Positions 38,586 through 57,557 of a stretch of 60,395 nucleotides of DNA are shown one piece after another. Positions within the stretch are counted from its first letter, which is position 1. Every line of letters begins with the position of its first letter. The position numbers were made by a program, and so were the translations under genes. Below the pieces are notes generated by a model, which worked only from the letters and a program-made list of their open reading frames with translations, had not been told where the DNA came from and did no database searches. Location of the stretch: IMG/VR virus record IMGVR_UViG_3300028805_000073. One strand, written 5' to 3'. This stretch comes from a virus. Its lineage: Duplodnaviria; Heunggongvirae; Uroviricota; Caudoviricetes.

Positions 38586-38590
38586 AATTG

Positions 38591-38666
38591 TTGGGGAAGC
38601 AGGATTCGAACCCGCGTAATGCAGAGATTTAGAGTCTCCAGTCTGAGGCCGCTCGACTATTCCCCA
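38591..38666 (-). tRNA. Amber suppressor tRNA, anticodon CUA, probable Gln identity
   Basis: TGGGGAA/TTCCCCA acceptor (U1-A72, G2-C71, G3-C70), anticodon arm GGAGA CT-CTA-AA TCTCT, T arm GCGGG TTCGAAT CCTGC. Confidence 0.92.
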
Positions 38667-46319: not shown

Positions 46320-46392
46320 TGGACAATGGTGTAATTGGTAACACACTACTCTTAAAAAAGTGGTATTATAGGTTCGAGTCCTATTTGTCTTC
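46320..46392 (+). tRNA. Degenerate tRNA with a Gln-like body and an 8-nt anticodon loop (CTTAAAAA); probably pseudo
   Basis: D stem GTGT/ACAC, CTACT/AGTGG stem, T arm ATAGG TTCGAGT CCTAT. The acceptor has mismatched terminal pairs. Confidence 0.55.
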
Positions 46393-48412: not shown

Positions 48413-48844
48413 ATGGAAATGAAGATTAATTTTACAAAAGAACATTATGCAAAGCTTAAAGAACTTGCTGTTCAAGCTTTATTTGAAGGAATAACCCTTC
48501 GTACTAAGTTGGGACCGTATCTCACTATTTACGAACTCGTTCACACAACTTCAATCAATCAACTTAATGAGATTAAGAATGGTCTTGCTAAGCAAATTGA
48601 AAAGATTGAGTCAGGTGATGAATGGATAGATCCAGATTCCGAGAAACTAGAAAGTCTCAAATCCAATAAAGAATTAGTTAATTTAATTATTGGATGGAGG
48701 AGATACAATCTAGAAAAAGAGACTAACGCTCGTAAGAAGGAAGAGCTTGAAGCTAAACTTGCCGAACTAAAAGAATCTACTAAGACTCCAGAAGATCGGA
48801 TTAAGGAGCTTGAAGCTCAACTTAAAGAGTTGGAAGAATTCTAA
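48413..48844 (+). CDS. Coiled-coil phage protein
   Basis: 143 aa with C-terminal KKEELEAKLAELKE...IKELEAQLKEL. Confidence 0.75.
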   Translation: MEMKINFTKEHYAKLKELAVQALFEGITLRTKLGPYLTIYELVHTTSINQLNEIKNGLAKQIEKIESGDEWIDPDSEKLESLKSNKELVNLIIGWRRYNLEKETNARKKEELEAKLAELKESTKTPEDRIKELEAQLKELEEF

Positions 48845-48849
48845 AGATT

Positions 48850-49395
48850 CCAGGGTGGGCGTGGTGGAAAGTCTGGGTAGTGCACTACTAGAGCGAGACT
48901 TTGTGTAGAATCTTTTCAATATAATAAGACTGAAGCTTGATACCGGAATGATAATTCTATGCTTAAGCGCATAACTTCGCTCATTATCATAAAGTAGAGA
49001 TAAAACCGCTCGAAGCCAGTCTTATTTTAAATATAATAAATTTCCGAGGGCTGAAGGGAATTCCAATATTGAACCTTCAACGGGTATACTGAATTGACAG
49101 TTGGAAGACCTTGTAGTGGCAAACACGTGATTGAGGTCATTGTGATACGTAAAGCAACGTAATGGAGACTGTAAAATAGAAAAGCAGTGAAAATCTGCAC
49201 TTTAGTAGAATCTCTTAGTAGATTGAAGGAGTTAATTGCTATAAAACAGATGTAGGAAATTTATTTTGTCTTCGGACTTGTTGGTGTATCAACTGGGAAG
49301 GTTACATCGAGAACAGAAAAGAACCCAAGCAGTTAAACATCTGTGGAGGACGTGGAAACCGTTCACTTTTATGGCACAATCCCTAAATTAAAGAT
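48850..49395 (+). ncRNA. Candidate ~550-nt structured RNA upstream of the TROVE-like gene
   Basis: No ORF. Helices AATAAGACTG/CAGTCTTATT (48923-32/49017-26), ATGATAA/TTATCAT, TGAAGG/CCTTCA, GACCT/AGGTC and ACAGATGT/ACATCTGT (49246-53/49337-44). Confidence 0.5.
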
Positions 49396-49426
49396 TAGTT
49401 ACTTACAAATTTCATAATTTAAAAGA

Positions 49427-51277
49427 ATGATTACAGTAGAATTAAACAAAAAGAACGAAAACCCATTTTATGGGTGTAGTAACTGTTTGAAATTAGTCGA
49501 ACAAGCAGCAGGTAATATAACTTATTCTATGCTTGATGCAGCATGGAATGAAGTTGCACAAGATATCGAGAAGAGAAAGATGTTCTTTTCAGTACTATTC
49601 TCCATTGGAGATATTACTGGAAGACAGCATAATATCTTTAAAGGAAAGAAAGTAGACTCTGGTGGTAATGCCAATAGAGATGCTTTCAATACCATTTTCC
49701 ATTGGTTATGGAACAATAACAAAAATCAATTCATTAAGTTCATGAACGCTCAGCTATTCAATGAATATCAGTGTTTTGATACATTGTTCCAGAATCGTGT
49801 GCAAACCAAAGGATCAAAGGTGTTGAATGTATTCTCTGCCTATCGTGATCCAGAGTATAAGAAAGCACTTCTTAACTATGTGTATTCTGTTATCAATGGT
49901 ACCAATCCGTTTAACAAGATGCTCATAGCTAAGTTCTTGACCATTCCTCGTACATCTAAGAGACAAGGTCATAAGAAGATGTTTCCTGAAACTCTCAAAA
50001 TTATGAGAGAGAAGAAGGCTTTCTTAGAGGAACTTTCTAAGATGATGGGTTGGGAGATAGCTTTCTTAAAAGGTTATCGTGAATGGCGCAAACAGTACAA
50101 TGGAGAATTGGAATCTGTTCTCTTCTCTACTGGAAAGATTAACGAATTTACTACTAAGGATGAATTCCTTAGTTGGTTTGATAAGCTTCCAGCACAAGCA
50201 CGTTTCCGTGTGAAGAACCGTATTCTTTATTCTAAAGATGGAACTCAAACTATAAATACTAAGAAGAACGATGGTAAAAGTCTTACCATTGTTGCAGATA
50301 AGTATAAGTGGGCTAAGTTCCAGCCTTGGTTAAAGGAATGGGAAACTTACAAGGATAAGAAGCAAGAAGAGCAACGTATTCTTGAAGAGAAAGTTCGTCA
50401 AGGACAGGCATCTGATGAAGATAAGATTAGACTTCAGAAGGTGAAGAAGGAAGCAAAGGTTACAACTGGTGCTATTAACTTTAAAGAGTTGTATGATTCA
50501 ATTCTGAGAGGTAATGTAGACAAGTTAAAACTTGAATCATTCATCCAGAATAAAGTCAATTTGCCATACAATAGTTTGGTAATCATTGACGATTCTGGTT
50601 CAATGAACGGCTCTCCGTTCAGATTTGCGAAGTTTATCGCTTCAGTATGTCTTGTTAAGAATCCAGATGATGATGCTCGTAATCTAATTGGATTCTTTAA
50701 CAGTACTTCTCACTGGCACAGTTTCATTGATCAAACTTCTTCTCGAAGAAATAGTCTTCTTAGAACTCAAATTGCTCAAACTAATGCTAAGCCATTAGTT
50801 GATCCAACCTTGAGTTTCTATGATAACTACTTGAGAATTAGTAGTTTCTGTGAAGCAGTATATCAGGGTGGAGGAACATACATCACAAGTATTCCTAAAG
50901 GTTTAGAGTTTATCATTAAAGAGAATCCAGATTTCTTGGACACTCTTAAAGAGTATCCGATTTGGACAATCTTAAGCGATGGTGACTTGAACAATGATTG
51001 GAATGCTCGTAGTAGTATGCTACAATTCCAGAATGACTGCCGTCGTATTCTTGGTTATGTTCCATTCGTAGTGATGATTGAAATTTATCGCTATGGACAA
51101 CCTTCAATTAACCATTTTGAAGGAATTGAGAATATGATTTACATTCCTGGAAATCCTGCTCAGATTGAACAATTCTTAACCAACTTTAAGGATATGGATA
51201 TCTTTGATGTCTATACTCCATTGTTGAGTCTCTATAGAAGTAATAGGTATGAACTCGTGAGAGCAAATACCCTTTAA
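49427..51277 (+). CDS. TROVE/DUF2828-like protein with C-terminal vWA domain (Ro60-like architecture)
   Basis: MIDAS motif VIIDDSGSM plus later GGT and ILSDGD elements. The helical N-terminus has LF...DI...GG...R..F and AKF..PR elements of the kind seen in DUF2828/TROVE proteins. Family assignment is by recalled motifs. Confidence 0.7.
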   Translation: MITVELNKKNENPFYGCSNCLKLVEQAAGNITYSMLDAAWNEVAQDIEKRKMFFSVLFSIGDITGRQHNIFKGKKVDSGGNANRDAFNTIFHWLWNNNKNQFIKFMNAQLFNEYQCFDTLFQNRVQTKGSKVLNVFSAYRDPEYKKALLNYVYSVINGTNPFNKMLIAKFLTIPRTSKRQGHKKMFPETLKIMREKKAFLEELSKMMGWEIAFLKGYREWRKQYNGELESVLFSTGKINEFTTKDEFLSWFDKLPAQARFRVKNRILYSKDGTQTINTKKNDGKSLTIVADKYKWAKFQPWLKEWETYKDKKQEEQRILEEKVRQGQASDEDKIRLQKVKKEAKVTTGAINFKELYDSILRGNVDKLKLESFIQNKVNLPYNSLVIIDDSGSMNGSPFRFAKFIASVCLVKNPDDDARNLIGFFNSTSHWHSFIDQTSSRRNSLLRTQIAQTNAKPLVDPTLSFYDNYLRISSFCEAVYQGGGTYITSIPKGLEFIIKENPDFLDTLKEYPIWTILSDGDLNNDWNARSSMLQFQNDCRRILGYVPFVVMIEIYRYGQPSINHFEGIENMIYIPGNPAQIEQFLTNFKDMDIFDVYTPLLSLYRSNRYELVRANTL

Positions 51278-51300: not shown

Positions 51301-51331
51301 GACTAGAGGAGGTTCGATTCCTCCTCTAGTT
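51301..51331 (+). ncRNA. T-loop-capped 12-bp minihelix-like hairpin
   Basis: GACTAGAGGAGG TTCGATT CCTCCTCTAGTT. Confidence 0.5.
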
Positions 51332-51338
51332 TCTAATT

Positions 51339-51403
51339 AGGATACTTACAATATTAAATTGCTAGTAAGTAACCAACTTTTAATTGATTACATTTAGTAT
51401 CCT
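51339..51403 (+). ncRNA. Y-like cassette 1 (AGTA-loop hairpin plus Lys-UUU anticodon hairpin)
   Basis: AGGATACT/AGTATCCT closing stem; internal TTGCT-AGTA-AGTAA and CAA-CTTTTAA-TTG. Confidence 0.7.
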
Positions 51404-51434
51404 TTTTAACAAATTTTAAATTTGAAATAAAAAT

Positions 51435-52226
51435 ATGAAAAATAAATTAAATGTACTTTTAGCTTTAAGAGAAAAACTCGCAAATCGTTATGCACAAATG
51501 AATGGAGATTACACTTCATTCTTTAAAAATAAACAGGGAGCTTTTCAAGGAGTATTAAAAACTCACTCACCTTTAGATGGATATTCAATAGATCCAACTA
51601 AGGTAGCAAATACTAGAATTGTTACTACAGTAAATGAAAAAATGGATTGGTGGCTTAAGGAAGCATTAGAATATTTTAATACAGCTCTTGCTATTGAAGC
51701 GTCCAATGGTGAAGGTGCTCCTTCTGTAAAACTTGAATTTGAAGGAAAAGAATACGGACCATTTCCTGCTACTGTACTTCTCCGTCTTCGTGGCATTATT
51801 GAAAGTGATAAACTTGCACAGATGCTTGGTTCTATTCCAGTAAGAGAGGAGACAAAAGTTTGGTTTCCATCAACTGATGAGGATTACATAAAGAGAGGTA
51901 ACATTTTTGAAACTGAAATGCAATCTGGAGAAACTCGTACAACTGAGACTCATGATGAAATTTTAAAAGATTGTAATCTTGATCCTCAGCATCTTCCTTC
52001 TAATTATAAAGCAGTAGTTACTTCTGTTAAGAAAACTGTAAAGACTGGTGATTACACAACTCAGTTTTTCACTGGTGAATGGACACATCAGCAAAGAGCA
52101 AATCTTTTGAAGAGACGTTCAGAACTTCTTGATGCTATCAATGTTGCTTTACAGAAAGTAAATGACCGAGAGGCTACTGAATGTAAAGTTGATGAACTTC
52201 TTGGACATTTGATTTATGGACAATAA
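51435..52226 (+). CDS. Conserved phage hypothetical protein (263 aa)
   Basis: Track ORF located inside the TROVE-like/RNA locus. Confidence 0.8.
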   Translation: MKNKLNVLLALREKLANRYAQMNGDYTSFFKNKQGAFQGVLKTHSPLDGYSIDPTKVANTRIVTTVNEKMDWWLKEALEYFNTALAIEASNGEGAPSVKLEFEGKEYGPFPATVLLRLRGIIESDKLAQMLGSIPVREETKVWFPSTDEDYIKRGNIFETEMQSGETRTTETHDEILKDCNLDPQHLPSNYKAVVTSVKKTVKTGDYTTQFFTGEWTHQQRANLLKRRSELLDAINVALQKVNDREATECKVDELLGHLIYGQ

Positions 52227-52473
52227 GATATTTCTTCTTGATTGGGAAGATAATGATATGGTTGGAGGTTTTGATGGAAAAACTTTTGATCAATGTTTTA
52301 ATACTGATAAAAAGTTATTATGTTGGAGCCTTCAACATACTATGGAATTAAAAGGAGTATCTTCATTAGAAATTCAATTTCTTAAATCTCATAAAGAATT
52401 AAATGAATTAAGAAAAAAGAACAATATTGAAGTAAAACCTACTCTCGATGAATATTTAGAAAAATTTAAATAA
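52216..52473 (+). CDS. Small hypothetical protein
   Basis: Track ORF overlapping the previous stop. Confidence 0.6.
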   Translation: MDNKIFLLDWEDNDMVGGFDGKTFDQCFNTDKKLLCWSLQHTMELKGVSSLEIQFLKSHKELNELRKKNNIEVKPTLDEYLEKFK

Positions 52474-52498
52474 TTGACCGTAGCTTTAGATTCACTTT

Positions 52499-52842
52499 AT
52501 TAGCTTTACAAATCCTAGATAATAAGCATTAATGTCGTGGTCAAAAGCATTAGTTAGGTTGATTACTGTATATTACTTACCTTGACGATTATAGCAATCC
52601 TAATATCGTAAGTTCGAATCTTACTAGCCCCTCATCACAGGCGTACTGAAGAAGGTTCAGCATTCCCGAAGTAAAATGTGTGAAATAGCTTTTATTAGAG
52701 GAGCTTCCCCGCAGAGGTTGTAATCTAATATTTGGGGCTATAGTATAGTGGTTAGTACATTAGGTTAGTTTAGCATTAGATTAAAGAGGTAAAAGGTAAT
52801 ATGCAAAAGTCTATGGATTAGTAAGACGGATTTGTCGCTAAT
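52499..52842 (+). ncRNA. Large rod-shaped RNA with a circularly permuted tRNA domain
   Basis: The tRNA 3' half (CCTAA, T arm 52608-24, TAGCCCC) precedes the 5' half (GGGGCTA 52734-40, D arm, TTAGG). Flanks pair as TGTATATTAC/GTAATATGCA, TTACCT/AGGTAA, ACAAATCC/GGATTTGT and ATTAGC/GCTAAT. Confidence 0.75.
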
Positions 52843-52846
52843 CCTA

Positions 52847-52921
52847 GGGGAAGTAGATCAGTGGTAGATCAATAGTCGCCAAAACTATGTGTCGTTGGTT
52901 CGAATCCAACCTTCCCTGCCA
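52847..52921 (+). tRNA. trnW: tRNA-Trp(CCA) with non-canonical G33, encoded CCA end
   Basis: Full cloverleaf; anticodon arm ATAGT CG-CCA-AA ACTAT; G73. Confidence 0.8.
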
Positions 52922-52922
52922 T

Positions 52923-52999
52923 AGAGAGGTATGCGAATTGGTATAGCAGCTTAAAATTCTAGGTATAAGTGTTTGGGAGTTCGATTCTCTCCCTCTCTA
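52923..52999 (+). tRNA. Aberrant tRNA with Leu-type D arm and irregular anticodon arm (TTCTAGG; UAG or CUA reading ambiguous)
   Basis: Acceptor AGAGAGG/CCTCTCT and intact T arm. CTTA/TAAG encloses 12 nt. Confidence 0.5.
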
Positions 53000-53006
53000 C
53001 CTGATC

Positions 53007-53071
53007 AGGATACTTACAATACTAAAAAGCCAGTAGGCAATCAACTTTTAATTGATCATGTTTAGTATCCT
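53007..53071 (+). ncRNA. Y-like cassette 2 (AGTA-loop hairpin plus Lys-UUU anticodon hairpin)
   Basis: AGGATACT/AGTATCCT; GCC-AGTA-GGC; ATCAA-CTTTTAA-TTGAT. Confidence 0.75.
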
Positions 53072-53090
53072 TTTAAAGAGATATAAAAAT

Positions 53091-53212
53091 AAGTTACTTA
53101 CAAAATAAAATATTAGCTTGCTAAGCCGCGTGTCATGGGTTCAAATCCCATCAAGGGACTATAAACTCCTTGTAGCTCAGTCTGGTAGAGCAACGTATTC
53201 ATTAAGTAACTT
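53091..53212 (+). ncRNA. Y-like cassette 3: permuted tRNA elbow (T arm, closed acceptor, D arm)
   Basis: AAGTTACTT/AAGTAACTT; ATGGG TTCAAAT CCCAT; CAAGGGA loop TCCTTG; GCTC AGTCTGGTA GAGC. Confidence 0.8.
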
Positions 53213-53322
53213 TTTAAAATTAAAAAATTATGGGAGAATTAGCTTTTATTTGTGGTTGTATGACATATTTGTGTGTTATGATAACCTTTATTTATATCAA
53301 ATTATGTAATAAATAATATAAT

Positions 53323-53436
53323 AAGATACTTACAAAACCATATTTAATGTTGGTTCGAATCCAACCTTCGTATTTACGATGTGGTGAAATTGGTATACAC
53401 GAGAAACTGTGGATTTCTTTATAAATTAAGTATCTT
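53323..53436 (+). ncRNA. Y-like cassette 4: permuted T-acceptor-D plus His(GUG) anticodon hairpin
   Basis: AAGATACTT/AAGTATCTT; GTTGG TTCGAAT CCAAC; TCGTA/TACGA; GTG..GGTATA CAC; AGAAA CT-GTG-GA TTTCT. Confidence 0.8.
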
Positions 53437-53442
53437 TTATAT

Positions 53443-53561
53443 GCAGGAGATAGTGTAATTGGTAACACGACGTAGTTATTAGTATCATACGATACTTACA
53501 ATACCAATTAACATTGCTTTTGGTGCCGTTAATGAGTGGTTCGAGTCCCTCTCTCCTGCCA
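53443..53561 (+). ncRNA. Cassette 5: tRNA-Gln(UUG)-like RNA with a 43-nt insertion carrying the closing stem in permuted form
   Basis: Normal-order tRNA. The anticodon stem ACG|GC / GCCGT is split by 53473-53515, which contains AGTATC-ATAC-GATACTTACAA. Confidence 0.75.
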
Positions 53562-53784
53562 GTTTACACACTAATAATATACGCGTTAAAAATAGTGTGG
53601 TTTTCCTATTCAACCTGAGTGGAACACTTCGATGTTATCTTCTAAGTCTGAAAGTTAAGCGATTAGGTACTAAAGGAAGTGAGAATAGTGAAAATGCTTT
53701 TGAAATTGTTATTTTTTACTTATTATATTAATAATTTACAAAGAGAAGTCTGTTGTGAAACATACTTCTTTACTAATAAACAAT

Positions 53785-54063
53785 ATGGAAAAGTATAGAA
53801 TTGCATTTACAATAGAGGACTATTACGATTATATTGGATATAGTATTAAAGAACGTATGTTACAATCTATTCCAGATTTATTTAGAGAGAATGGTTATAA
53901 CATTAAATTCAAAACTCTTCATTATTATCAACATAAATACTATAGAGTACACATGTCGGTTAGAATGACAGAGGAAAAAATCAAGGAAGTATTTGAAGAA
54001 TACAAAGATATGATGTTTGAATTAAATAACACATCATATAAATTAATAACAAAACATTTTTAA
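53785..54063 (+). CDS. Small hypothetical protein
   Basis: ATG-trimmed track ORF. Confidence 0.6.
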   Translation: MEKYRIAFTIEDYYDYIGYSIKERMLQSIPDLFRENGYNIKFKTLHYYQHKYYRVHMSVRMTEEKIKEVFEEYKDMMFELNNTSYKLITKHF

Positions 54064-54067
54064 TTAT

Positions 54068-54295
54068 ATGGGAAAAGGTAAAGGTGAATTAGTAGTTCGT
54101 CAAAGAGCTGCTTTAAAAAGATTGGAGGCTGCTTATGAAAAATTTAAAGCAGCTGGTGAAGATAAGAAACCTTACGATTCTACTCGTAATGGTAGAATTA
54201 TTCATCACTCTGGTAGAAGTTATAAAGAAGAATGTGAAAGAATGAAGAAAGAAATCTCCAATTTAAAGGAGAACATTTCAAAGAATCATTCTTAA
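54068..54295 (+). CDS. Small basic hypothetical protein
   Basis: Track ORF of 75 aa. Confidence 0.65.
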   Translation: MGKGKGELVVRQRAALKRLEAAYEKFKAAGEDKKPYDSTRNGRIIHHSGRSYKEECERMKKEISNLKENISKNHS

Positions 54296-54341
54296 CATTT
54301 TTTAACTATAATATCTAAAAATAAAAAATAAATTTAAAATC

Positions 54342-54396
54342 AAGATACTTACAAATTTTTATTATAATTTATAATGTTGGAATAAATAAGTATCTT
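54342..54396 (+). ncRNA. Y-like cassette 6 (minimal)
   Basis: AAGATACTT ACAA ... AAGTATCTT followed by a T run. Confidence 0.65.
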
Positions 54397-54403
54397 TTTT
54401 TTG

Positions 54404-54487
54404 GCCCCTATATTCGAATTGGTATAGAAGACAGACTTAAAATCTGTTCAGCAGTTGCTGGTGTGAGTTCGAGTCTCACTAGGGGTA
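54404..54487 (+). tRNA. trnL: tRNA-Leu(UAA)
   Basis: GCCCCTA/TAGGGGT; ACAGA CT-TAA-AA TCTGT; long variable arm. Confidence 0.88.
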
Positions 54488-54506
54488 CATGGACTGAGGA
54501 TAACTT

Positions 54507-54993
54507 AATTAAATTTGAGTGCTATGGCGAGAAATCCCATAGTAGAATCTCCCTAAAACGGTGGAAGTCCTTTTAGCCCTGATATATCAGGAGGATTTTC
54601 TGCACTGAACAATCGCAGAACACTAACCAATAATGTGTAAGGATAATACCGTGCTAAATTGATAATCTTAGTAGCATTTATATGTGAAAAGCGAATGTTG
54701 AGTAGTAGAACGGCTACATTATCATAAATGTGTAGAGGATATAGAGGAGATACCTAAGTTGAAATTTATGTTAAAGCAGAGTATAGAAACTGCTACATAT
54801 GAGATATAGTTTACATAAGAACCTATTCCCTCAAAAGGTTTAAACCCTAACATAATCTTGCAAGAATTTCAATATGGTAATAATATATTCCAGACCACAA
54901 CAAATTTAACGCATCATCGGTTGGATGCCTGGGGACATGTGCCTCGTATATACGTTATTGTTAAGTTTGGCTATGGTAACATAGTGTGGTAGG
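54507..54993 (+). mobile_element. Group I intron (487 nt, no ORF) lacking a recognisable tRNA 5' exon
   Basis: P1 ACUU|AA/UUGAGU with a U.G pair; P3 ATCTCC/GGAGAT; P4 ACGGT/ACCGT; P7 GAGGATA/TATTCC; GTAA-capped P9; terminal G. Confidence 0.8.
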
Positions 54994-55044
54994 AAAATCC
55001 AATGTCCAGTAATGGACGTGGGGATTCAATTTCCCCTAGAGCTA
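54994..55044 (+). pseudogene. Orphan 3' half of a class II tRNA (Leu-UAA type)
   Basis: AAAA TCCAA, variable arm GTCC/GGAC, T arm GGGGA TTCAATT TCCCC, acceptor strand TAGAGCT-A. No complementary 5' half was found nearby. Confidence 0.7.
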
Positions 55045-55114
55045 CATGTCGTGAGACATATGATTTTTTGTTAACGATTGTTGGTTAAGCTACTGTACCT
55101 TAACAGTAGCACTT

Positions 55115-55185
55115 TGGGGTTCGGTGTGACGGTCGCACAGAAGATTTTGGTCCTTCTAGTACAGGTTCAACTCCTGTAATCCCAA
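55115..55185 (+). tRNA. trnQ: tRNA-Gln(UUG)
   Basis: TGGGGTT/AATCCCA; loop TT-TTG-GT; U1-A72. Confidence 0.85.
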
Positions 55186-55189
55186 CTAT

Positions 55190-55254
55190 AGGATACTTAC
55201 AATAGATAATTAAATGCGATAAATAAATATTTATAGGAATGTTCTAAGTATCCT
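55190..55254 (+). ncRNA. Y-like cassette 7 (minimal)
   Basis: AGGATACTT ACAA ... AAGTATCCT. Confidence 0.65.
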
Positions 55255-55258
55255 TAAT

Positions 55259-55296
55259 GCGCTCATAGCTCAGTTGGTAGATGCACATGACTTTTA
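55259..55296 (+). pseudogene. Orphan 5' half of tRNA-Lys(UUU)
   Basis: GCGCTCA TA GCTCAGTTGGTAGATGC A CATGA CTTTTA, fused directly to the next tRNA. Confidence 0.7.
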
Positions 55297-55367
55297 GCTT
55301 CCAAAGCTTTAAGGTGAAGCACGAAACTTTTAATTTCGGGAACACGGGTCAGTACCGTGTGGAAGCA
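55297..55367 (+). tRNA. trnK: tRNA-Lys(UUU) with atypical T loop (GTCAGTA)
   Basis: GCTTCCA/TGGAAGC; CGAAA CT-TTT-AA TTTCG; CACGG/CCGTG. Confidence 0.8.
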
Positions 55368-55373
55368 CAATTT

Positions 55374-55499
55374 AAGTTACTTACAAAATTATTAATAATA
55401 TTATACTAAAATTAGTATCAATGGTTCGAATCCATTATTTTCCACCATATTTTTTGGGAGATTAGCATAGTGGTTTAATGCAATATTTTTAAGTAACTT
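55374..55499 (+). ncRNA. Y-like cassette 8: permuted tRNA elbow with internal ACCA and a G3.U70 pair
   Basis: AAGTTACTT/AAGTAACTT; T arm 55420-36; ATTTTCC-A-CCA (55437-47), linker, GGGAGAT (55456-62); GCAT/ATGC D stem. Confidence 0.8.
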
Positions 55500-55702
55500 T
55501 CTTCTATAAAAGAATATTTAACAAGACCCTCTAACTAAGGTGACAGGCTGCCTTAAGCAATGTAGGTGTACGCTAGCAATAATCCATACATTTCTAGGTG
55601 AGAGTAAATATAAAGTTGGTGCACAAGTGAAATTACTCTTAGAGCATTTAATACTAAATAAATTGGTTTAAATGTAATGTCAAAAAATATTCTTTTTAAT
55701 AT

Positions 55703-55775
55703 CACGGAGTGGAGCAGTTGGTAGCTCGCCAGGCTCATAACCTGGAGGTCGCACGTTCGAATCCTGCCTCCGTAA
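55703..55775 (+). tRNA. trnM: tRNA-Met(CAU), initiator-like (C1xA72)
   Basis: Cloverleaf with loop CT-CAT-AA and a C1/A72 mismatch. Only two of the three initiator G-C pairs are present in the anticodon stem. Confidence 0.85.
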
Positions 55776-55801
55776 CATAGCTTTCTTTTTTCTGACATAA
55801 T

Positions 55802-55908
55802 AAGATACTTACAAAACTAAAATGATGTTTAGTTCATTTGGTTAGAACGATTTCTTTTCAAGAAATAGTAACAAGTTCGATTCTTGTAATGTCAACCAGA
55901 AGTATCTT
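55802..55908 (+). ncRNA. Y-like cassette 9 enclosing a complete tRNA-Glu(UUC) (55823-55898, CCA end)
   Basis: AAGATACTT/AAGTATCTT flanks TGATGTT...ATTTC TT-TTC-AA GAAAT...AATGTCA-A-CCA. Confidence 0.8.
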
Positions 55909-55912
55909 AAAT

Positions 55913-55984
55913 CGTGGGTTCATCTAAGGGTTAGGATTGCAGATTTTCGATCTGCCCATACCAGTTCGAATCTGGTACCCATGA
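55913..55984 (+). tRNA. trnE: tRNA-Glu(UUC)
   Basis: CGTGGGT/ACCCATG; GCAGA TT-TTC-GA TCTGC. Confidence 0.85.
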
Positions 55985-56188
55985 CTTAGTCCGACTTTTT
56001 GGCAAAGTCGTTAAAGAAATGCACCACTGTTTAATAGTTTTGCAGTAAAGAACTATTCGTTGTAAGAGAGAAAATAACTCTTAGAATAAGCGTTAATGAT
56101 TCAAAAAAATTCCTAGATATTTTTTCTAGTAGAATCCTACATGGTTACAAATAATGACTAATAAAATAACATAAATGTAGGATTATTT

Positions 56189-56260
56189 GGGGTGTGTGAT
56201 GTAAAGGCTAACATATCATCCTTGCACGATGAATTTGCGGTTCGAATCCGACACACTCCA
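56189..56260 (+). tRNA. trnA: tRNA-Ala(UGC)
   Basis: G3.U70, A73; TCATC CT-TGC-AC GATGA. Confidence 0.85.
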
Positions 56261-56263
56261 CTA

Positions 56264-56347
56264 AAGATACTTACAAATACTTTTAATATTTTATTAGACA
56301 TCATATGTAGTATCAAGTTTATTAATCTTAATAATCTTAAGTATCTT
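56264..56347 (+). ncRNA. Y-like cassette 10 with Lys-UUU anticodon hairpin
   Basis: AAGATACTT/AAGTATCTT; AAATA-CTTTTAA-TATTT at 56275-91. Confidence 0.7.
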
Positions 56348-56352
56348 TTAAT

Positions 56353-57158
56353 GCTCCCTTAGCTCAGTGGATAGAGCAACTGCCTTCAGTATATTTCTGT
56401 GAAGAAATAAACAGGAGTGCTATGGCGAGAAATCCCATAGTAGAATCTCCCTAAAACGGTGGAAGTCCTAGTTAAAATTGAAGACCCTTAGTAGCCTATA
56501 GGCGAAAGTGGAATACGGCTTTAATGGCTTGCAGCAAACGTAAACTGCATCTGAAACAATAAGGAAGGATAATACCGTGCTAAATTGAGAAACAGTAGAA
56601 GTCCTTTTAATACTGATAATATAAATTCATTTGTATATAAAATTTATGTTAAGATAAATATAAAACTTTTGAATAAAATAGCGTCTTGGCTATATCCAAG
56701 CAATAATATCAGTAACACTAACCAATAATGTGTAAGGATGATTTAGTACAAATAGTTCAAATGGAAATAGAACGCTCATAAAAGTGTAGAGGATATAGAG
56801 GAGATATGAGGGAAATATATTGAATACCCTCACATTCTATTCAGACGTATCTGATAAGAATGCCTAAGTTGAAATTAGTGAGGGAAGGTCACAGTAGTCC
56901 TGTTATAAAACATCGGAAAACCTCCTTGCTTACTTGCAAGAATTTCAATATGGTAAAGATGTATTCCAGACCACAACAAACAAACAATCGCTGAGGGTAA
57001 CAGAGTGACTATCGTAGTTACAAGGCAAATCCTGTAAGTCAAAAGCCTAAGCCTTCTTAGGGATAAACATAAAATCGGAGGCTAAAATTTGTTTGGCTAT
57101 GGTAACATAGTGTGGTAAGCTAAGCAGTAGGTCACAGGTTCGAATCCTGTAGGGAGTA
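56353..57158 (+). tRNA. trnR: tRNA-Arg(UCU) split by a group I intron: join(56353..56386, 57120..57158)
   Basis: The spliced product has ACTGC CT-TCT-AA GCAGT, acceptor GCTCCCT/AGGGAGT, and canonical D and T arms. Confidence 0.9.
56387..57119 (+). mobile_element. Group I intron (733 nt, no ORF) after U34 of tRNA-Arg(UCU)
   Basis: CUU|C pairs with IGS GGAG through a U.G pair. The core is nearly identical to the 54507-54993 intron and ends in G. Confidence 0.9.
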
Positions 57159-57258
57159 CTATATTCAATACTAGATAAGAATCTCTTTTTTGTTTTGTTT
57201 TCATAGTATTAGTTCTATATAGAGAGTAATTCTAGTTAAACTCTCATTTCATAATAAT

Positions 57259-57372
57259 GAGATACTTACAAAATCATATTTTGTGAATTTTTAGCTCATT
57301 TGGTAGAGCGCACGATTTATAATCATGAGGTCGCCGGTTCAATTCCGGCAAAATTTATTTTATTAGTATCTC
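57259..57372 (+). ncRNA. Y-like cassette 11 enclosing a tRNA-Ile(UAU)-like cloverleaf (57285-57357)
   Basis: GAGATACT/AGTATCTC flanks a tRNA with loop TT-TAT-AA and an almost purely A-U acceptor stem. Confidence 0.75.
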
Positions 57373-57382
57373 TTTTTTATAA

Positions 57383-57456
57383 AGTCCTATAGTGTAGTGG
57401 TCAAACATATCTGATTTACATTCAGCAGATCCTTGGTTCGAATCCAAGTAGGACAA
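57383..57456 (+). tRNA. trnV: tRNA-Val(UAC)
   Basis: GTCCTA/TAGGAC; loop TT-TAC-AT; canonical T arm. Confidence 0.82.
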
Positions 57457-57557
57457 CGCTACAAACCACAGTGTATATATTAAAAGGGAAATTCAATCTT
57501 TTATAGATTGGGTTTCCCTTAATTTTTTTAATTGATAACAATAATTATTGAAAAAAT

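Follow-up and report, generated by a model that had tools for sequence, protein, structure and literature searches.

Y RNAs are thought to be derived from tRNAs, and their tRNA-like domains have been proposed to tether Ro60 to tRNA-handling enzymes. To our knowledge, the known tRNA-like Y RNAs are permuted, have no anticodon loop and are few per genome. In M. smegmatis, RNase P cuts the YrlA RNA and CCA is added to it in vivo, so that this Y RNA comes to have a tRNA-like acceptor end that is free (Chen et al. 2014, PMC4201824). A phage Ro60 binds both phage Y-like RNAs and host PNPase, and one use proposed for the Ro60 of phage phiLo is the capture of host PNPase (PMC12135203). In our literature search, we found no published description of capped Ro-type handles inside tRNA genes.

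Here we describe a gene with such a handle. It lies in 60,395 nt of AT-rich phage DNA from the ruminant gut (IMG/VR record IMGVR_UViG_3300028805_000073), a stretch that was analysed as a whole and is called the window below. An array of tRNAs occupies 52.8-57.5 kb of the + strand and includes the gene, at 53443-53561. The gene belongs with the Ro60/Y-RNA kind as a novel variant, and its reading as a protein-binding RNA is supported by association. Its parts are as follows.

53443..53561, +: whole tRNA-shaped gene, with G-1, 7-bp acceptor, D arm, split anticodon arm with side arm, bulged T arm, C73 and CA (sequence, fold, ARAGORN call after deletion, orthologues)
53470..53472, +: 5′ part of the anticodon stem, ACG (positions 27-29), paired with 53527-53529
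53473..53515, +: side arm (the insert) of 43 nt, comprising an 8-nt spacer, the capped handle hairpin, UACAA and a 14-nt spacer (sequence, fold)
53481..53496, +: capped handle helix of 6 bp, AGUAUC (53481-53486), loop AUAC, GAUACU (53491-53496); same helix as in the open cassettes, with covarying triplets
53497..53501, +: conserved UACAA immediately 3′ of the handle helix, the same word in all cassettes of the window
53516..53529, +: rest of the anticodon arm, GC (53516-53517), 7-nt loop UUUUGGU (53518-53524) and GCCGU (53525-53529), with the anticodon UUG at 53520-53522
53534..53551, +: T arm with a single bulged U (53537) in its 5′ strand (MFE fold)

[quoted passage not shown] U8, A9 and G26 were all present, and the D arm (53453-53468) was normal, with GG in the D loop. 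The side arm leaves the anticodon stem on its 5′ strand, between positions 29 and 30. As the two strands of its handle stand in reversed order and are joined by a 4-nt loop, the handle is capped and projects from that strand. The initial annotation had described the 3′ strand (AGTATC) ahead of the 5′ strand, joined by ATAC, and the letters at 53481-53496 agreed with it. The MFE fold contained an 8-bp acceptor, the D arm, the handle hairpin and the bulged T arm (z = -2.35). The extra acceptor pair G-1:C73, which had also been pointed out, is real. Among the related loci (numbered with L), it was kept in L004 and in L002, where the acceptor sequence is different, and it was not found in L003, L012 and L006. 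The anticodon loop was identical to that of an ordinary tRNA-Gln(UUG) at 55115-55186.

The intact gene was not called by ARAGORN and did not match RF00005 at E values up to 10. Its only tRNA-type signal in Rfam was tRNA-Sec, with 20.7 bits against a gathering score of 47 bits. After exact in silico deletion of 53473-53515, ARAGORN called a 74-nt tRNA-Gln(ttg) with a 5-bp anticodon stem, a 7-nt loop and the anticodon UUG. The earlier statement that removal of these 43 nt restores the stem thus held, and the contiguous cloverleaf of a canonical tRNA was seen only in the deleted form. In two further respects the gene differed from canonical tRNAs: its T stem was interrupted by the bulged U (53537) instead of being a regular 5-bp stem, and a His-type G-1:C73 acceptor was combined with the anticodon UUG. 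We know of no canonical tRNA with a bulged U inside the T stem like this one. Standard tRNA finders miss genes with capped handles. Therefore, inventories of phage tRNAs are incomplete, whether the arm is retained or removed.

A scan for promoters and terminators around the gene revealed nothing beyond the shuffle level. Just 3′ of the gene, at 53567-53606, there is a 7-bp hairpin with a 19-nt loop, followed by GUUUU. The scan did not flag this hairpin because the loop is too long. It could be the transcript end for the gene and for two neighboring cassettes, 3 and 4.

Some ten other cassettes of the array are closed by the same handle, which consists of a 6-bp helix and UACAA directly after it. 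The 11-nt word of the handle, GATACTTACAA, occurred 14 times in the window when variants with one mismatch were included, compared with 3.06 expected, and none of 100 shuffles reached 14. All exact copies were on the + strand, at 51.3-57.3 kb. Each copy in the window is the 5′ strand of a helix, the 3′ strand (AGTATC) of which lies 40-120 nt downstream. A change in the first three bases was matched by a change in the partner, for example GTT with AAC. Two MAFFT alignments were not structure-consistent, as loop and spacer lengths vary, so covariation was counted by a script over the window and 42 related loci, after removal of L008, which duplicates part of the L030 contig. There were 402 handle sites on the + strand and 65 on the opposite strand. 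An exact downstream partner was found for 62% of the + strand sites, compared with 7.8% for control triplets, and an exact capped (just-upstream) partner for 10%, compared with 0.44%. Capped copies numbered 41 on the + strand and none on the opposite strand. Across 51 capped handles ACUUA was invariant, being the anchor of the search pattern, and the next A, which is outside the pattern, was invariant too. The strand bias and the covariation indicate that the handle is an RNA helix, not a promoter or a DNA repeat. On the strand counts, we rejected a recombination site or mobile inverted repeat, and the 11-mer was rejected as a promoter because its variable triplet covaries with the partner.

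In its open form, the handle closes three permuted tRNA-like cassettes, two whole tRNAs (55804-55906 and 57261-57370) and several short hairpin RNAs of the window. U-rich tracts follow the 3′ strand of the handle in open cassettes. The three permuted cassettes are listed here.

53093..53210, +: cassette 3, permuted twin of 53443-53561 with open handle and closed acceptor, stem GUUACU/AGUAAC (Rfam YrlA, 41.9 bits)
53325..53434, +: cassette 4, handle-closed permuted tRNA-like RNA, ending 8 nt before G-1 of 53443-53561 (Rfam YrlA, 24.8 bits; fold)
55376..55496, +: cassette 8, third permuted tRNA-like cassette, closed by GUUACU/AGUAAC

Cassettes 3 and 4 were YrlA-like in Rfam, with scores below the gathering score of 69 bits. 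The insert had been described as the circular permutation of cassettes 3, 4 and 8. This was right for the order of the strands: in 53443-53561 the AGU strand follows the D-arm side, and the T-arm side follows the strand bearing UACAA. However, the exact twin is cassette 3 only. It shares the ACG/UA junction with 53443-53561 (the slash marks the boundary of the insert) and, past the handle, has a 7-nt loop closed by GC. In cassette 4 the anticodon arm is on the opposite side, and cassette 8 has none.

Several other genes of the window also had unusual features. A tRNA-Arg(UCU)-like gene was split in its anticodon loop by an insert of ~745 nt (56351-57170), while L001 and L002 have an uninterrupted tRNA-Arg(tct). 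A second copy of this large insert RNA follows tRNA-Leu, at 54489-55100. Both copies had contig depths of 1,000-26,000 in two of three rumen RNA libraries and of 231-2,500 in the third, against 65-270 in the DNA run. The large RNA had no Rfam match, group I introns included. At 55259-55296 there is the 5′ half of a tRNA-Lys(UUU)-like gene (acceptor, D arm, anticodon stem and start of the loop), which runs straight into a complete but odd tRNA-Lys(UUU) at 55297-55368 with no UUC in its T loop. A tRNA at 46320-46392 has an 8-nt anticodon loop with the four-base anticodon UAAA, and amber-suppressor tRNAs (CUA) were found at 38590-38666 (-) and 52923-53001 (+). The minus-strand genes at 1-36.8 kb are open only if TAG is read as a residue, with up to 33 TAG codons in one frame of 2256 aa. 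The + strand from ~39 kb onward, with the RNA/Ro60 region, uses the standard code.

The array adjoins a gene for a Ro60-like protein, and 53443-53561 sits 2.2 kb downstream of it.

49427..51277, +: gene for a 616-aa Ro60/TROVE-like protein (helical ring and vWA domain, DxSGSM MIDAS motif), the proposed partner of the handle (AF2 model, structure matches)
49398..49483, +: open handle copy around the start codon and ribosome-binding region of the Ro60-like gene (with a counterpart in 29 of 40 related loci)

The 616-aa protein had no Pfam match at E values up to 10, TROVE included, and phmmer found none in the PDB. A profile of the protein gave only weak PDB matches, in the vWA region of Ro60/TROVE chains, and the only other signal was a weak match to phrog_850, 'RNA-binding protein'. 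An AlphaFold (AF2) model was built from an alignment of 69 sequences (pLDDT 90.5, pTM 0.87). Its best structural match was Ro60 (1yvp_B, Z 12.1), with 395 residues aligned and spanning 18-593, and other matches were Deinococcus Rsr (2nvo, Z 11.9), a TROVE domain (Z 11.7) and the Ro60 of phage phiLo (Z 10.5). Plain vWA domains matched at residues 380-591 only. The model has the Ro60/TROVE architecture, a helical-repeat ring and a C-terminal vWA domain with MIDAS, and the DxSGSM motif of the latter was invariant in 69 relatives. With an earlier shallow model (pTM 0.43), Ro60 was top in Foldseek and the TM scores were poor. Judged from the predicted structure, the protein is Ro60-like in architecture but not at the sequence level.

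The handle word was found just upstream of the Ro60-like gene in 30 of 40 related loci. In 29 of them it had a complementary partner, ~35-80 nt from the word. In the nine sequences that were read in detail, the partner lay at differing early codons, and there were compensatory variants of the UUUACU/AGUAAA type. Upstream of and into the same gene, at 48598-49625, RNA-library contigs had depths of 790-1748, compared with 51-68 in DNA, which suggests another abundant small RNA or a stable fragment of the 5′ leader. The Ro60-like gene and the first handle hairpin are followed immediately by a gene for a DUF7873 protein (51435-52226), which belongs to a conserved viral family. An Atlas look-up of this protein returned its own family only. 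It is an alternative candidate for the protein that binds the handle.

We searched related genomes for the arrangement seen at 53443-53561. Orthologues were present in L004, L002, L003/L012, L005/L020, L006, L009, L027, L024, L037, L038 and L042, in phages with Ro60-like proteins 59-88% identical, and all four tRNA helices and the arm were kept. The split stem occurred as ACG/GC, CAG/GC, CU/GUC, CG/GAA, CG/AUC and CGU/GC, each with a matching 3′ strand, and the compensatory changes of the anticodon stem were in L003/L012, L006, L005, L024 and L038. A loose search for split stems gave solutions in 22-43% of shuffles and was replaced by a strict test, which required five pairs with at most one G.U, a 7-nt loop, U33, a purine at 37 and the proper distance to the T loop. 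We discarded a scan in which ARAGORN was run over every deletion boundary, as it proved far too permissive. By the strict test, a split anticodon arm was found in nine of 11 distinct orthologous lineages, compared with 1.7-4.9% of shuffles (3.5% for shuffles of this gene). The remaining two lineages have 8-nt loops. After removal of the arm, the anticodons across lineages were UUG, GUG, UGG, GUU, UCA, UAG and AUG. The handle stems of the orthologues also varied by compensation (GGUACU with a G.U pair, UGCACU, AUAAACU). The bulged U of the T stem was kept in L004 (UUU), L002 and L003, and the pair next to it had changed from A-U to U-A, which is compensatory.

The stretch is not an assembly artefact, a possibility that had been raised at the outset, since a DNA-run contig and an RNA-library contig cover it without differences and the orthologues are on independent contigs. 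The initial annotation had also proposed an evolutionary intermediate between tRNAs and Y-like RNAs. We found no support for an intermediate. The design is stable, conserved and multiplied: a script search revealed 63 tRNA-like genes with capped handles in 32 related loci and the window, with several insertion positions. In family A, the capped handle is within the anticodon stem. Family B consists of tRNA mimics of class-II shape (long variable arm) with a capped handle in place of the anticodon loop. In family D, the capped handle is inserted in the D loop of otherwise canonical tRNAs, one of which, in L003, has an encoded CCA end.

L002:16829-16951, L011:12716-12833, L013:12053-12172 and L014:7456-7575: members of family B (folds with z from -4.5 to -5.8)
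L002:12799-12925, L003:15077-15200, L010:13363-13485 and L014:8392-8513: members of family D (anticodons GCU, AUG, GUU and GGU)

As family B has no anticodon loop, no tRNA can be restored there, and its arm must be the functional part. In a pattern scan of IMG/VR, ten complementary capped handles had a tRNA-like context, and every one of them was on a contig with the gene for the Ro60-like protein; for eight of them the gene was in the fetched stretch, and two were on the L003 contig. Among matches to the pattern outside such a context, only one of 111 was on a contig of this kind.

On balance, we lean towards the reading that 53443-53561 is an analogue of the YrlA-type Y RNAs in tRNA order and with a free acceptor, and that it keeps its arm and docks the Ro60-like protein with it. 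The arm most likely docks this protein, rather than being an intron, because the helix that closes Y-RNA-like genes and surrounds the Ro60-like start codon is the same one. Comparative evidence therefore favors the earlier alternative of a tRNA with a protein-binding handle, as the helix is shared with the YrlA-like cassettes and the Ro60-like leader and travels only with that gene, the binding itself being suggested by association. The GNCGAA(N)G motif for Rsr binding was absent from 53443-53561 and from all cassettes, and its sole occurrence in 51301-57500 was inside the large RNA, at 56501. Since the handle is without this motif of the known Rsr-bound Y RNAs, the case for docking is one of association.

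In a retained form, the gene would be transcribed within the + strand RNA array. RNase P would cut the 5′ end, probably leaving G-1 because the acceptor has eight pairs, and the 3′ end would be trimmed. The anticodon stem could remain stacked through its continuous 3′ strand, with the arm branching off after position 29. The arm, with its 6-bp helix and UACAA, would be the docking site of the 616-aa ring protein, and this protein would meet the same helix at its own start codon, which may lead to feedback control. As has been proposed for YrlA, the tRNA body might serve the particle as its effector module. It would show its acceptor, elbow and Gln-type anticodon loop to host factors that bind tRNA, candidates being an exoribonuclease partner or defence enzymes that cut or modify tRNAs, for which the RNA might be a decoy.

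Several findings count against a working decoder. A normal tRNA-Gln(UUG) is in the same window, a His-type acceptor (G-1:C73) is joined to a Gln-type anticodon, the T stem has a bulged U, and some orthologues have AUG anticodons or 8-nt loops. By the identity rules of HisRS, an RNA with a His-type acceptor and a Gln anticodon would miscode if it were charged and used. Other points count against docking. Another protein, such as the DUF7873 neighbor, could bind the handle, and the match to Ro60 is at the level of the predicted fold only. Also, the canonical arms with diverse anticodons, as read from the sequences of nine of 11 lineages after removal, look as would be expected of decoders bearing introns.

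The latter point leads to the possibility that the insert of 43 nt is a tRNA intron of a new kind. The handle would mark the precursor for an endonuclease, perhaps recruited by the Ro60-like protein, and a host ligase such as RtcB would rejoin the parts into tRNA-Gln(UUG); the handle-flanked whole tRNAs and the permuted cassettes would then be further substrates of the same maturation pathway. We consider this unlikely, though it deserves serious weighing. Exact removal gives a perfect stem and loop that ARAGORN accepts, the anticodons of the restored arms include sense and suppressor ones, the junctions are alike across lineages (CG/UA on the 5′ side, UU/G on the 3′ side), and the tRNAs of family D are canonical apart from the handle. 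RtcB was present in the control genome, Bacteroides thetaiotaomicron. However, RtcB and the tRNA splicing endonuclease (PF01974) were absent from five complete related genomes (176-183 kb), and only one of the five had an RNA_ligase-family domain. The T4 Rnl1 family had no match in these five genomes, and its control also matched nowhere. There is no bulge-helix-bulge, both junctions being opposed at the base of one helix. Self-splicing introns of groups I and II have a catalytic core of ~200 nt or more, which the 43 nt fall short of, and Rfam gave no intron match on the insert. The same handle closes RNAs and an mRNA leader that need no joining, family B has no anticodon loop to restore, and the duplicate tRNA-Gln(UUG), the mixed acceptor and anticodon identity and the bulged T stem speak against a decoder as the product. 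A retained arm is thus favored over an intron by the geometry of the junctions, the size of the insert, the missing enzymes, family B, the shared handle and the tRNA-Gln duplicate. An RNA-library contig from sheep/bovine gut runs spans 53239-54173 unspliced. As its depth of 15.5 is the baseline of the neighboring coding DNA, it may be DNA carry-over or a precursor. None of the RNA-contig joints listed crosses 53473-53515. It is also conceivable that the handle defines a new class of protein-marked tRNA introns and processing signals in bacterial viruses, in which the Ro60-like protein or a partner recruited by it licenses excision and rejoining and times the activity of the tRNAs, the precursors being suppressor and sense tRNAs, permuted genes and handle-flanked tRNAs. 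This version seems to us a little more doubtful still.

The handle could also be unconnected with the Ro60-like protein, either as a protein-independent RNA element or as the site of a different protein. It would then be a stem for processing, stability or end protection, such as a site for an RNase or a clamp that keeps exonucleases out. The U-rich tracts of the open cassettes fit such a role, and around the two whole tRNAs the handle resembles a leader-trailer processing stem. The known Rsr motif is absent, and the conserved DUF7873 protein is next to the Ro60-like gene. Nevertheless, the handle surrounds the Ro60-like start codon in most relatives, tRNA-like genes with capped handles were found only with the Ro60-like gene in the IMG/VR scan, and an invariant single-stranded UACAA beside a covarying helix resembles a site for protein recognition, not a clamp. 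We regard this explanation as rather improbable. The irregular T stem, the many local repeats of the handle and the lack of an ARAGORN or Rfam call for the intact gene might further suggest a decaying, functionless tRNA gene into which a mobile hairpin repeat had inserted. This is very hard to reconcile with the orthologues, which keep four helices and the arm by compensation, with the conservation of the T-stem bulge in the nearest relatives, and with the strong strand specificity of the motif; we give it hardly any credence.

It seems that one handle serves as a portable tag in this phage lineage, on whole tRNAs, permuted mimics, mimics in tRNA order and the Ro60-like mRNA. In the mimics in tRNA order that bear it, the anticodon loop is intact and the acceptor end is free. 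Should the arm be retained, these mimics would be the first Y-RNA analogues in tRNA order and would offer a route to understanding the part played by the tRNA-like modules of Ro60 particles in infected cells, such as recruiting an exonuclease or protecting, as a decoy or shield, from defences that cut tRNAs. If the arm is removed, it would represent a new class of introns in bacterial viruses.

Among known systems, the non-canonical tRNA introns of archaea are similar in that a short insert is at a non-canonical position (29/30) and its exact removal restores a canonical anticodon arm. They differ in the bulge-helix-bulge, which is not seen here, and in the splicing endonuclease, which the five complete relatives do not have. 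In addition, the initiator tRNA is of bacterial type (C1xA72), the context is that of a bacterial phage, and the sequence of the insert is common to RNAs other than tRNAs. The permuted tRNA genes of Cyanidioschyzon merolae and two-piece tmRNA resemble the neighboring cassettes, which are permuted and have their ends in a helix away from the acceptor. In contrast, 53443-53561 is itself unpermuted, and neither a circular intermediate nor a BHB at the ends is indicated.

The system of the Thermus phage phiLo (PMC12135203; PDB 9KOP, 9L5Y) shares a phage Ro60 ring, here a predicted one, and phage partner RNAs beside its gene, here putative ones. However, its Yrl1 and Yrl2 are stem-bulge-stem Y RNAs with a CGAA motif and are not tRNA-shaped, and there are two of them, compared with an array of about a dozen handle-bearing RNAs here, whole tRNAs included. 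YrlA (RF02553; Salmonella, M. smegmatis, mycobacteriophages) is similar in its tRNA-like T arm, D arm and acceptor, with a stem at the position of the anticodon stem that is putatively protein-binding here. It is also similar in lying beside a Ro60-type gene, although the partner found here matches Ro60/Rsr by fold only. The YrlA covariance model (gathering score 69 bits) did not match 53443-53561, and the handle word here is a helix with UACAA, not GNCGAA. Unlike YrlA, 53443-53561 is in normal tRNA order, not permuted, and keeps a complete anticodon loop beside the handle. With this order and a handle capped by a loop, its RNA is one piece with native tRNA ends.
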